Shown: positions 9,694-20,153 of the stretch, piece after piece | Numbering within the stretch: the first letter of the stretch is position 1 | Layout: each line of letters opens with the position of its first letter | Source: Balneolaceae bacterium | GTDB lineage: Bacteria; Bacteroidota; Rhodothermia; Balneolales; Balneolaceae | Assembly (NCBI GenBank): GCA_034521495.1 | Contig: JAXHMK010000021.1 | Coordinates: 115,455 to 179,454, forward strand | Direction: 5' to 3' | DNA length: 64,000 nucleotides | Translations under genes and position numbers: made by a program | Notes under the pieces: model-generated | Told to the model about the DNA's origin: nothing | Seen by the model: only the letters and a program-made list of their open reading frames with translations | Databases searched by the model: none

Positions 9694-9715
9694 GACTTAT
9701 ACATAGATGTTATGC
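9694..9715 (+). other. Candidate attI recombination site heading the cassette array
   Basis: GACTTATACATAGAT-GTTATGC. GTTATGC (9709-9715) is the exact complement of the first attC R'' GCATAAC (10437-10443). No attC left arm is seen upstream. Confidence 0.5.
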
Positions 9716-9859
9716 AAATTTCATGCATTTTAAATTTGTATAACATTGAATAAACAGGCTTTTACTTGGTTTTTTGAGGGGTTTGAAATATTATACATCG
9801 TATTCGTACGGATTATGAAATTTGCTTAATTATATGTAATGCTCCCTCATCTTAAAGAC

Positions 9860-9888
9860 TTGACAATACGAACGGAATAGCGTACGTT
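9860..9888 (+). promoter_or_regulatory. Sigma70-type promoter of the yefM-yoeB cassette
   Basis: TTGACA-N17-TACGTT, overlapping short CGTACG palindromic motifs (possible operator). Confidence 0.5.
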
Positions 9889-9923
9889 TTATGTTCAGGC
9901 AATTAACCAAACTTATTTATTCC

Positions 9924-10166
9924 ATGAAAACTCTAACAGCAACACAAGCCCGAAAAGATATTTATCGATTGTTGGATGAAACTTCAGAGACTCATAAACC
10001 CATCCAAATTACCGGAAAACGATCGAATGCCGTATTAATCAGTGAAGAGGATTGGCGGGCTATTCAAGAAACTCTTTATTTGACATCTATTCCTGGAATG
10101 CAAGAGTCTATTGTTGAAGGAATAAATACACCTCTTGAAGAAACCGACGAAGAACTTGACTGGTGA
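9924..10166 (+). CDS. yefM: Phd/YefM family antitoxin (cassette 1)
   Basis: MKTLTATQARKDIY...ITGKRSNAVLISEEDW...ETLYL; 4-nt overlap with the toxin gene. Confidence 0.9.
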   Translation: MKTLTATQARKDIYRLLDETSETHKPIQITGKRSNAVLISEEDWRAIQETLYLTSIPGMQESIVEGINTPLEETDEELDW

Positions 10167-10429
10167 GTAACTACAAACTCGTTTATACCAAACAAGCTAA
10201 GAAAGACGCCAAGAAAGCAGCTTCATCAGGATTAAAATCAAAGATCGAAGACTTATTGGAAATTGTTAAGGAAGATCCGTTTGAAGAATATCCTCCTTAT
10301 GAAAAGTTAGTCGGTAATTTGGAAGGGGCTTATTCGCGGAGAATTAACATCCAACATCGCTTGGTTTATCAAGTGTATGAAAAGGAAAAAATTGTCAAGG
10401 TGATTAGAATGTGGACTCATTATGACTAA
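10163..10429 (+). CDS. yoeB: Txe/YoeB family mRNA interferase toxin (cassette 1)
   Basis: EKLVGNL..YSRRINIQHRLVY...MWTHY motifs. Confidence 0.92.
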   Translation: MSNYKLVYTKQAKKDAKKAASSGLKSKIEDLLEIVKEDPFEEYPPYEKLVGNLEGAYSRRINIQHRLVYQVYEKEKIVKVIRMWTHYD

Positions 10430-10436
10430 TCCGGTA

Positions 10437-10559
10437 GCATAACAAGGCGTTTCAAGCGGATTTTAACGCAGCGTGATTTGCCACTTAGAAGTTTTTGGTC
10501 GTTATTGCCGTTGTTAAAAACCATCTTGTTAAAACCGCTTAAACGCTGGGTCGTTAGGG
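10437..10559 (+). other. attC-like site 1
   Basis: GCATAAC-aaggcg-TTTcAAGCGG ... CCGCTTAAA-cgctgggtc-GTTAGGG; imperfect palindrome with an extrahelical C. Confidence 0.85.
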
Positions 10560-10581
10560 GTATTAATCACAAATTAATTAT

Positions 10582-18433: not shown

Positions 18434-18516
18434 CAATGTGGCTCAAGCGGACGAGTTTTCAGTTCGAGACTTTGGAAAATTAATCGCCTCGCCGCTTAGC
18501 CATCGAACCGTTAGGC
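18428..18516 (+). other. attC-like site 4
   Basis: GGTTAAC-aatgtg-GCTcAAGCGG ... CCGCTTAGC-catcgaacc-GTTAGGC. Confidence 0.85.
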
Positions 18517-18556
18517 TTCTTTCTTAAGAGCATTAAAAATTCAATCGCTTTATCTT

Positions 18557-19636
18557 ATGAAATTAATCATCAAGTTTTTATTGTTTCCTTTGATTTTGGC
18601 ATTGTCGACCAATTGTTTTGGCCAATCAAAAAATAACAAGTCTTTCCCAGATACAACTTGGTATCAATATTCATCTCCACAACAAGTTGGCTGGTCATCA
18701 AATGGAATTACAGAAGCAAAAAATTTTGCAGATTCTCTTGGAGCTAAAGCAGTTATGCTCATTGAAGATGGGGCAATTGTAACTAAATGGGGAGACAACA
18801 CGGGATTAGCACCCATTTTTTCTATTCGCAAAAGCTTGCTCAATGCCTTATATGGAATCTATATTGAAAAAGGGATCATTGACACGACTATGACTCTTGC
18901 TGAGTTAGGAATTGATGATAAGCAAGGTCTAACCAAGAAGGAAAAATCAGCAACAATAGCTGATCTACTTACAACAAGTTCCGGTGTTTATCACCCTGCT
19001 GCATTTGAACCACCGGGTATGCAAAAACCAGATCGGGGCAGTTTCAAACCTGGTGAAAGGTGGTACTACAACAACTGGGATTTTAATGTATTGGGAGTCA
19101 TTTTTGAAAAGTTAACCAATAAAAAAATATTTCAAGTTTTTGAAGAACTTATTGCCAATCCTATCCAAATGCAGGATTATAATAGCGGTTGGGGAGCTTA
19201 CCATTTTCAACCAGAACGTTCACAGCATCCAGCTTATACGATACGAATGTCTGCTAGAGATCTCGCAAGGTTTGGTCTTTTATACGAACAAAACGGCGTT
19301 TGGGAAAATAAACAGCTGATTCCAAAAAAATGGATTCAAACGAGCATCTCTCCGAAAATGACTGTGCCCTATGGTCAGGATTATTCTTATGGTTATTTAT
19401 GGTGGATTTATGGACAATCAATTCTGGGACATAAAACTTTTTTTGCATCCGGTAGTGGTAGTCAACTCATTGTTGTTATTCCTGATTTAGATATAGTTTA
19501 CGTAATGAGAGCGTCTGCAGAATTAGAACGTGGAGTAAATGGCCTTGAGGCAAGAGAAATTCTAACTAAATTATTAGATGCAAAAAATGAAAAAGCTATT
19601 TCGGAGCCGAAAATAGTGCCAGCCAAATTTGAATAA
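18557..19636 (+). CDS. Secreted serine hydrolase, beta-lactamase/AmpC-like fold (cassette 5)
   Basis: Signal peptide; SIRK (SxxK), YNN (YxN), DLARFGLLY, YGYLWW. Confidence 0.85.
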   Translation: MKLIIKFLLFPLILALSTNCFGQSKNNKSFPDTTWYQYSSPQQVGWSSNGITEAKNFADSLGAKAVMLIEDGAIVTKWGDNTGLAPIFSIRKSLLNALYGIYIEKGIIDTTMTLAELGIDDKQGLTKKEKSATIADLLTTSSGVYHPAAFEPPGMQKPDRGSFKPGERWYYNNWDFNVLGVIFEKLTNKKIFQVFEELIANPIQMQDYNSGWGAYHFQPERSQHPAYTIRMSARDLARFGLLYEQNGVWENKQLIPKKWIQTSISPKMTVPYGQDYSYGYLWWIYGQSILGHKTFFASGSGSQLIVVIPDLDIVYVMRASAELERGVNGLEAREILTKLLDAKNEKAISEPKIVPAKFE

Positions 19637-19650
19637 AGGGAAAAGAAAGA

Positions 19651-19770
19651 AACCTAATCGCATTAACTGGGACGCGGACGTGGCTTCGATTTACAGAGTT
19701 GCTTGTTTTGAATTTTTAGCCGTTAATTAACTCATAATCTCCGCGCCCGTTATGCGCTGAGTCGTTATAT
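19651..19770 (+). other. attC-like site 5 with damaged R'' core
   Basis: ACCTAA-tcg-CATtAAC ... GTTATG-cgctgagtc-GTTATAT; about 4 nt are missing after CCTAA. Confidence 0.7.
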
Positions 19771-19798
19771 TTTTAAACTTTAAATTAAAAATTTCATC

Positions 19799-20014
19799 AT
19801 GTTAGAATTTATAGGTGGTCTTCTCGTAGACCTATGTCTTTTCGGTGGTATTGCCCTATTTGGTATGAGCTTTTTCAAAAAGTTCAAAAAACATCAATTC
19901 AAAATGATTATTTTTAGTATTGTTCTACTTGTACTCTGGATTGTGTTTATAGATATGGCAGCTCTTTCTGAAGCATTTCAGCAAGGCGTTGAAGCAGGTA
20001 GAGGTAATCAATAA
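19799..20014 (+). CDS. Small two-TM hypothetical protein (cassette 6)
   Basis: 71-aa ORF filling the space between attC5 and attC6; two hydrophobic segments. Confidence 0.65.
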   Translation: MLEFIGGLLVDLCLFGGIALFGMSFFKKFKKHQFKMIIFSIVLLVLWIVFIDMAALSEAFQQGVEAGRGNQ

Positions 20015-20018
20015 AACT

Positions 20019-20153
20019 GTTTAAAATATCAAGCGCATTAACTCGGACAGGCCTCGCCATCTCCTTGCCTCGCTTCCACTTATTAGTTAATATTTCGTTT
20101 TAAAACTAATTCGACATTCTGGCGCCTGCCGGTTATGCGCAATGTCGTTATCT
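20019..20153 (+). other. attC-like site 6 (last), R'' lacks AAC
   Basis: Near-identical to the right part of attC2; ends GTTATG-cgcaatgtc-GTTATCT. Confidence 0.75.

Follow-up and report, generated by a model that had tools for sequence, protein, structure and literature searches.

Are arrays of integron cassettes that have no integrase beside them dead relics, or live reservoirs used in trans? Such arrays make up about half of integron-like elements, and the question is still debated. They are known as CALINs, clusters of attC sites lacking an integron-integrase (Cury et al. 2016, PMC4889954; Neron et al. 2022, PMC9024848). A 64,000-nt stretch of contig JAXHMK010000021.1 from a Balneolaceae bacterium (assembly GCA_034521495.1; hereafter the window, to which all positions refer) raises this question, as an initial annotation made from the sequence alone had described in it a six-cassette integron-like array with no linked integrase. 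Our analysis indicates that the locus is very probably just that, a chromosomal cluster of six integron cassettes without a neighbouring integrase. Six attC sites lie within 9.7 kb, while intI is absent from the 9.7 kb upstream and the 44 kb downstream; as no integrase is encoded in the 64-kb window, the CALIN definition fits. The host is a salt-loving, Rhodohalobacter/Gracilimonas-like member of the Balneolaceae, which confirms the earlier placement in an FCB-group chromosome, and the remaining window genes are chromosomal housekeeping genes (nuo, fab, pfk, thyA). The array had been called AT-rich, and its GC content, 0.35-0.39, indeed lies below the 0.43-0.48 of the flanking DNA.

Once single-stranded, the bottom strand of an attC site adopts a bulged hairpin, which IntI cuts between G and TT, so that cassettes can be excised as circles and re-inserted. 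Two site types were defined by eye among intergenic palindromes, and then made into search patterns that were scanned against 185,579 species genomes (one genome per species). The type I pattern matched 58 stretches where about 2 are expected by chance, and the type II pattern matched 73 stretches (about 95 sites) where about 0.1 is expected, both expectations being our own estimates. Nearly all matches occur in Balneolaceae (Gracilimonas, Rhodohalobacter, Fodinibius, Aliifodinibius, Balneola and Halalkalibaculum), often as 2-4 sites per 8 kb in a single orientation. The sites of these relatives consist of R'' (..TAAC), a 2-3-nt spacer, a bulged L'' arm, a variable loop of 38-76 nt, the L' arm, a 6-nt spacer and R' (GTT....). 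Bulges are confined to the R''-L'' arm: type I has a top-strand C and A (bottom-strand G and T) located 7 nt apart, and type II has three bulges spaced 4 nt. The type I spacing matches the extrahelical bases of attCaadA7 (G16/T23), and that of type II those of attCoxa2 (G16/A20/T24) (PMC5027507). Across both families, AAC and GTT either do not vary or are conserved at 97%, and the arms covary at columns left free by the patterns (AAAT/ATTT, GGCT/AGCC, GTTT/AAAC, GTGT/ACAC and GCAT/ATGC). Paired cells amount to 96.6% (type I) and 97.4% (type II); sliding the partner column lowers this to 23-46%. Double-sided changes were found at seven and five pairs, respectively, with 22-41 double changes per single pair.

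Family-specific covariance models (R1 and R2) were built from the relatives' sites only, without window sequence, and run unfiltered over the whole window. Together they find exactly six sites in 64 kb, all on the plus strand (A1, A2, A4, A5, A6 and A7), at 20.8-113.5 bits (E 2e-3 to 4e-29); elsewhere in the 64 kb there is no R1 or R2 match better than E 0.1. The imperfect palindromes noted earlier after the genes, and with them the six-cassette array, are thus recovered by models trained on relatives. An Rfam scan of 9000-20500 gave no match, Rfam having no attC family, and folding energy alone beats shuffled sequences only modestly (z -0.6 to -2.7). All six palindromes are genuine attC sites, and they fall into two Balneolaceae families:

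10437-10559, plus strand: attC A1, type I with a long loop; R'' GCATAAC, R' GTTAGGG (R1 28.3 bits, E 2e-5; R2 43.5 bits, E 1e-9)
12533-12539, plus strand: left piece of attC A2; R'' CCCTAAC, within the 12/12 complement AATACCCCTAAC
14240-14361, plus strand: right piece of attC A2, type II; R' core mutated to GATATGG (R2 match 14232-14361, 109 bits, E 7e-28); 92-97% identical to A7
17698-17789, plus strand: attC A4, type I; R'' ATATAAC, R' GTTAACC (R1 79.6 bits, E 2e-20; R2 30.8 bits)
18428-18516, plus strand: attC A5, type I; R'' GGTTAAC overlapping the stop codon, R' GTTAGGC (R1 79.2 bits, E 2.5e-20; R2 20.8 bits)
19651-19770, plus strand: attC A6, type II; R''/spacer 3 nt shorter (AACCTAAT), R' GTTATAT (R2 81.8 bits, E 2.6e-20)
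20023-20153, plus strand: attC A7, type II, the final site; R'' AAATATC with one mismatch to the family consensus, R' GTTATCT (R2 113.5 bits, E 4e-29)

Five of the six sites have GTT at R', the exception being GAT in A2, and we take the set to conform to the pattern R'' RYYYAAC / R' GTTRRRY. R'' ends in TAAC in A1, A2, A4 and A5, and is degenerate in A6 (CCTAAT) and A7 (ATATC). The cassettes delimited by these sites are:

9696-20153, plus strand: whole array, from the leftmost site A0 to the last attC; six cassettes without a neighbouring intI
9837-10553, plus strand: cassette 1, toxin-antitoxin pair yefM (9891-10166) and yoeB (10163-10429) with its own promoter-like TTGACA, and attC A1
10554-14355, plus strand: cassette 2, OLD-family ATPase-TOPRIM nuclease (10582-12528) and attC A2, interrupted by an insertion sequence (IS)
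14356-17783, plus strand: cassette 3, four genes and attC A4
14631-14873, plus strand: thioredoxin-like gene of cassette 3 (Pfam)
14874-15863, plus strand: ArsP-like permease gene of cassette 3 (Pfam)
15877-16926, plus strand: ArsO flavin monooxygenase gene of cassette 3 (NF040505, 486.8 bits against a cutoff of 425)
17062-17661, plus strand: ECF sigma factor gene of cassette 3 (Pfam)
17784-18510, plus strand: cassette 4, putative toxin-antitoxin pair DUF433 (17865-18089) and DUF5615/PIN-like (18086-18433) (Pfam), and attC A5
18511-19764, plus strand: cassette 5, beta-lactamase-fold serine hydrolase (18557-19636) and attC A6
19765-20147, plus strand: cassette 6, 71-aa predicted membrane protein (19799-20014, from the list of open reading frames) and attC A7

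The initial annotation had recognised each unit by a start complementary to its own R'' end, and for five of the six units these pairs are placed as claimed: GTTAGGGGTATT (10553) with AATACCCCTAAC (12528-12539; 12/12) for cassette 2, GATATGGC (14355) with GCCATATAAC (17695-17704) for cassette 3, GTTAACCT (17783) with AGGTTAAC (18427-18434) for cassette 4, GTTAGGCTTCTTTCTT (18510) with AAGAAAGAAACCTAA for cassette 5, and GTTATATTTTTAAAC (19764) with GTTTAAAATAT for cassette 6. Scoring R'' against the start of its own cassette gives 61, the maximum of 720 permutations (mean 33.5), while scoring against the start of the next cassette gives 28.5; the complementarity therefore exceeds chance. The first pair does not hold. 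The GTTATGC at 9709, taken as the array start, is a coincidence, and the true start is G9836|T9837: a metagenome contig forks at 9837, homology to Rhodohalobacter halophilus JZ3C29 (L123) begins at 9836, and the L123 counterpart has a canonical cassette start, G|TTATGC, after a preceding attC. The window start, G9836|TAATGC, has a mutated core. Two junction cores are mutated in all, GTA at 9836 and GAT at 14355, and where homology between genomes breaks off, it does so at G|TT points. The description of cassettes 2 and 3 likewise had to be corrected, as the attC of cassette 2 is split by the IS and cassette 3 carries four genes. All cassette genes are co-oriented as described, while the IS110/IS1111-family transposase within attC A2 lies on the minus strand (13067-14136).

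The cassettes are shared with other genomes. Cassette 1 (Pfam PhdYeFM 64 bits, YoeB 47 bits) has a homologue with 78% nucleotide identity inside the complete integron L123. The nuclease of cassette 2 (Pfam AAA_21, AAA_15 and OLD-like_TOPRIM; PADLOC Old/GajA/AriA at ~55 bits) is, by its domains, a candidate anti-phage gene. A Gracilimonas metagenome-assembled genome (MAG) from Salar de Ascotan soil (L095) holds cassette 3 at 98.9% identity over 3454 nt (window 14336-17786 against L095 486-3938), with other cassettes on both sides there. Compared with the best amino acid matches of the flanking host genes (ABC exporter and pepM3, 85-92%), this nucleotide identity points to a recent horizontal transfer of the cassette. 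In a salt-pan metagenome, the depth of cassette 3 is 2-5x that of its neighbours. The ArsO-sigma gap of this cassette holds a palindrome (16920-17010, CCTAACGACG...CGTCGCAGTTGG) that by eye resembles a degenerate attC. It folds (z -1.9) and was rejected as a seventh attC, as it is missed by both R1 and R2 and the four-gene unit is kept whole in L095; it may be a relic of two former cassettes that fused. Cassette 4 has homologues in five other arrays (L107, L128, L197, L205 and L150; 70-92% amino acid identity), with homology to L107 beginning at 17785. The cassette 5 hydrolase matches Pfam Beta-lactamase (80.5 bits), and for the cassette 6 protein a weak match to DUF4293 is the only one in Pfam.

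Which integrase could serve these sites? A tblastn search of the six frames of the window with four Balneolaceae IntI sequences gave a best E of 0.02 and no intI fragment, upholding the earlier description as integrase-less and CALIN-like. Pfam Phage_integrase was found neither among the open reading frames in or beside the array nor among 20 further window frames of at least 271 aa. The window thus has no intI adjacent to the array, as a complete integron would have. In about 15 loci fetched from relatives, by contrast, a tyrosine recombinase gene precedes the array on its 5' side, at 1-2.5 kb from the first attC, and is encoded on the other strand; the three recombinases tested match the TIGR02249 integron integrase over the full profile (425-436 bits, cutoff 265). 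The complete integrons of L123, R. sulfatireducens WB101 (L186) and Aliifodinibius salipaludis (L142) have the same attC families, orientation and anatomy as the array, and L123 shares its yefM/yoeB cassette; they differ in the divergent TIGR02249 intI 1-2.5 kb from the first attC, where the window has none. R. sulfatireducens is the closest cultured relative (pepM3 91%), and its complete integron uses the same attC family. In L142 and L155 (both Aliifodinibius), ~190 nt upstream of intI, homology extends up to ...TATGTATAAGNNTAGG|TTA and then diverges. The attI crossover is thereby placed at a canonical G|TT, with repeated TATGTA(C/T)A motifs ahead of it. Contigs of the salt-pan metagenome, aligned to a Rhodohalobacter intI, gave only short IntI-like pieces of 80-90% identity, at a comparable depth of 10-16, that cannot be assigned to the host genome. 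The literature searched contained no paper joining integrons with Balneolaceae or Gracilimonas, in agreement with the initial remark that integrons are poorly described in this lineage. The complete integrons reported with IntegronFinder 2.0 for the Bacteroidetes/Chlorobi group come from Chlorobi, Ignavibacteriae and Salinibacter ruber (M1) (PMC9024848).

The same salt-pan metagenome contains two variants of the array. The unitig 9667-9837 forks at 9837, leading either to cassette 1 or to the start of cassette 4 ('TAACCTCC...'). The second joint, 9835->17783, skips 7947 nt; GT alone is common to both ends, and the sequences beside the joined ends show no other resemblance when read by eye. Located exactly at the G|T of A0 and the G|TT of A4, the joint is the expected product of integrase-mediated recombination. 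Depth is ~18-20 in the flanks, 10.5-11 over cassettes 1-2 and 22.5 over cassettes 4-5, so about half of the population lacks cassettes 1-3. In a second metagenome (X3), both toxin-antitoxin cassettes and attC pieces occur at high depth, and the other cassettes are absent. The left end of the joint is provided by the leftmost site:

9696-9842, plus strand: A0, proximal recombination site, an AT-rich hairpin with the crossover at G9836|T9837

CTTATAC (9696-9702) pairs with GTA (9836-9838), which gives an R-box-like TAC/GTA pairing around the crossover, and the stem is an 11-bp perfect inverted repeat (GCAAATTTCAT at 9714-9724, ATGAAATTTGC at 9815-9825) with no bulges; the fold has a z of -2.3. 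A0 clearly acts as the proximal crossover site of the array. It shares no similarity with the attI regions of 12 relatives, which are barely conserved among themselves. A first metagenome scan for A0 gave no match, and the 14 matches of a second scan, which had no further homology to the window, were treated as chance. Three identities are conceivable for A0: an atypical attC, an orphan attI, or a secondary site in the genome.

Comparison of the interval between the genes bordering the array, as had been advised at the outset, gives a further view of turnover. The neighbours are:

7687-9288, plus strand: sulfatase gene, left neighbour of the array
20268-22064, minus strand: ABC exporter, right neighbour of the array

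A Rhodohalobacter MAG (L210), which came to light in a search from the pepM3 side, keeps the order dacB, sigma-54 activator, folD, pepM3, sulfatase ... ABC exporter, band-7, with 88% identity to the window for the sulfatase and 92% for the ABC exporter. Its sulfatase-ABC interval holds three ordinary genes and no attC detected by R1 or R2. Two short remnants (window 9495-9551 and 20190-20226) align the array edges to L210, so that the array and a 285-nt leader (9552-9836) occupy a position at which two convergent genes of L210 are separated by 136 nt; genes neighbouring the insertion point are deleted in the window relative to L210. As this nearest syntenic relative has no array at the locus, the array is not an old fixed platform. 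Among 18 Balneolaceae loci examined from the ABC-exporter side, band7-ABC is kept and nothing further is common. One of the other Balneolaceae MAGs (L197, 1-8000) carries a type II attC followed by toxin-antitoxin-like pairs fused without attC; its attC region lies ~5 kb from an ABC-exporter homologue (80%) and looks like a more decayed array. We rejected L197 as a sign of a common array beside the ABC exporter, as the layout differs: its cassettes are fused, and a 755-aa gene intervenes.

Transposition has also acted on the array. IS110-family elements are RNA-guided, and an IS1111-attC group (ISPst6, ISKpn4, ISPa25) was reportedly described by Tetu and Holmes in 2008 and by Post and Hall in 2009. 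The element in attC A2 is:

12540-14239, minus strand: IS1111-type insertion sequence of ~1.7 kb, directly after the R'' AAC of A2; right end uncertain by a few nt

This GC-rich insert (GC 0.51) has 9-bp subterminal inverted repeats (ATGGCCTCC at 12546-12554, GGAGGCCAT at 14221-14229) and a transposase (Pfam DEDD_Tnp_IS110 and Transposase_20; NCBIfam NF033542, 148.6 bits) that is frameshifted into 14136-13354 and 13360-13067, followed by a ~530-nt non-coding region (12540-13066), presumably that of the seekRNA. A 32-nt tandem duplication (14148-14211) is absent from the metagenome contigs and from a Fodinibius MAG (L187), and the contigs have an extra C at 13382 relative to the window copy. 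The same IS, at 97% nucleotide identity, occupies the same attC position in L187 (1719-3471), and it occurs again after GGTTAAC in L107 (3267-3322). In three genomes, then, the insertion point immediately follows the R'' AAC, and both attC types are targeted. Judged on its sequence and insertion points, the element is an IS1111-attC IS in its behaviour (Siddiquee et al. 2024, PMC11187229), with the DEDD transposase, subterminal repeats, long non-coding region after tnp and fixed attC-end insertion point of the family. It differs in residing in a distant host lineage, in its shorter repeats (9 bp versus 11-13 bp) and, for the window copy, in the frameshift and the 32-nt duplication.

How does the locus compare with known systems? 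It resembles a CALIN in its co-oriented attC sites and cassettes, chromosomal location, lack of intI nearby and signs of decay; its six sites agree with the average of almost 6 attC per CALIN, the IntegronFinder 2 default being at least 2 (PMC9024848). It differs in coming from a family with no integron report in the searched literature, in having two lineage-specific attC families, and in the population evidence for gain or loss of three cassettes at an array without integrase. As in sedentary integrons, for example the Vibrio superintegron, the array is chromosomal, has mutually similar attC sites and two interspersed toxin-antitoxin cassettes, includes a candidate anti-phage nuclease, and consists mostly of cassettes that are accessory or have no known function; toxin-antitoxin cassettes (PMC13108822) and defence cassettes (bioRxiv 10.1101/2024.07.02.601686) have been described in sedentary chromosomal integrons. 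However, arrays are treated as typically sedentary with more than 10 attC (PMC9024848), whereas this one has six cassettes and no intI/attI/Pc platform, so that it differs in both size and platform. An attG insertion (bioRxiv 10.1101/2022.09.11.507474) would similarly place an array where the relative has 136 nt, without a platform and with a G|T leftmost junction, but here a 285-nt leader with the attC-like hairpin A0 precedes the first cassette.

Each cassette carries between one and four genes in the same orientation and closes with an attC from one of two families that complete integrons of related genera also use. Decay is visible in the IS in attC 2, the cores GTA and GAT and the two degenerate R'' boxes; even so, a three-cassette block is present or absent in one population, with the joint exactly at the crossover point, and we infer that the array has been acted on by an IntI whose gene lies elsewhere in this genome or belonged to a recent ancestor. 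We consider it possible, if short of probable, that cassettes still enter and leave the array in nature through an integrase whose gene lies elsewhere, with A0 (an orphan attI or a new proximal site) as the entry. Several observations weigh against this picture. No integrase is linked to the array within the 64-kb window that was searched, and activity in trans is what we infer from the remaining evidence; the variant joint is built from k-mer contigs, with 28-30 nt on one side, as opposed to phased long reads; A0 is bulge-free and missed by both R1 and R2; and the cores at 9836 (GTA) and 14355 (GAT) are non-canonical. With these mutated cores and the disrupted attC 2, cassettes 2 and 3, at least, are probably no longer separable. 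Alternatively, the array would be a true one that is now recombinationally dead and simply decaying, its variants predating integrase loss or arising by deletion independent of IntI. The IS in attC 2 is itself frameshifted, two crossover cores are mutated, A6 and A7 have degenerate R'' boxes, intI is absent from 64 kb, and CALINs are generally seen as degraded integrons (PMC9024848). We nevertheless find a dead array somewhat unlikely: the variant joint is exact at the A0 G|T and A4 G|TT without flanking homology, as for IntI and unlike homologous or illegitimate recombination, and both variants occur together in one sample at similar depth. Furthermore, R' cores are intact in four and stems in all six of the sites, and the closest cultured relative (L186) retains a complete integron with the same attC family.

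A rearrangement that left the array's own intI-attI platform outside the window appears improbable. It would account for the 285-nt leader (9552-9836) with no counterpart in L210, for the deletions on either side of the insertion point, which suggest local rearrangement, and for the IntI-like pieces (80-90%, depth 10-16) in the same metagenome. But both flanks are collinear with L210, with no large inversion or translocation breakpoint visible, no fragment of intI lies anywhere in the window, and the metagenome pieces cannot be assigned to the host genome. It is extremely improbable that the palindromes are not integron sites at all but intrinsic terminators, REP/MITE-like repeats or Xer-type (pdif-like) boundaries. 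Every site does come after a stop codon, folding energies are near those of shuffles, and Rfam gives no match; yet the sites are specific to one strand and bulged on a single arm, have AAC/GTT inverse cores at fixed spacing, lack T-runs after the stems, complement their own cassette start through R'', and belong to families that adjoin integron integrases in ~15 genomes, with inter-genome homology breaking at G|TT. The initial annotation had named three outcomes that would speak against a cassette array: identical gene order in distant relatives, no similar sites elsewhere, and no recombination. Instead, gene order differs in the syntenic L210, about 150 similar sites exist elsewhere, and the joint of a population variant falls precisely on G|TT.

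Other mobile or repeated sequences were seen in the window. A MITE-like element of ~110-137 nt has three copies (298-418, about 9330-9466 and 57957-58077), with terminal inverted repeats GCTTTGCAAAAC/GTTTTGCAAAGC (7 half-sites versus 0.7 expected). The copy at 9326-9471 has a k-mer depth of ~1,700-10,000 in the salt-pan metagenome, compared with ~20 for the host, so the element is extremely abundant in that community; Rfam gave no match for the copy at 9330-9466, the only one within the scanned range. Upstream of the ABC exporter, 22105-22435 contains GC-rich palindromic repeats (e.g. CCCCTTGAGGGGAG, CTCTCCCGCGGGAGAGGGG), and as metagenome contigs skip 239-327 nt there, this looks like a presence/absence polymorphism of a small repeat. 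A Tn5-like (IS4-family) transposase (Tnp_DNA_bind, DDE_Tnp_1, Dimer_Tnp_Tn5) is located at 60341-61711, with GC 0.505 over 61001-62000.

The locus bears on the debate over CALINs by virtue of its exact boundaries, a syntenic relative in which no attC was detected at the locus, and two coexisting variants that differ by three cassettes. In other respects this is ordinary integron biology, with toxin-antitoxin cassettes, a candidate anti-phage cassette and an arsenic-related module 99% identical in another genus. For the family, the analysis indicates that Balneolaceae commonly carry integrons, with two attC families of their own and an attC-targeting RNA-guided IS, none of which was found in the searched literature. 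If the array is indeed loaded in trans through A0, the salt-pan variants would represent a natural snapshot of trans-acting recombination at a CALIN. Cultured Rhodohalobacter and Aliifodinibius possess matching integrases and attC families, which makes the question experimentally testable.

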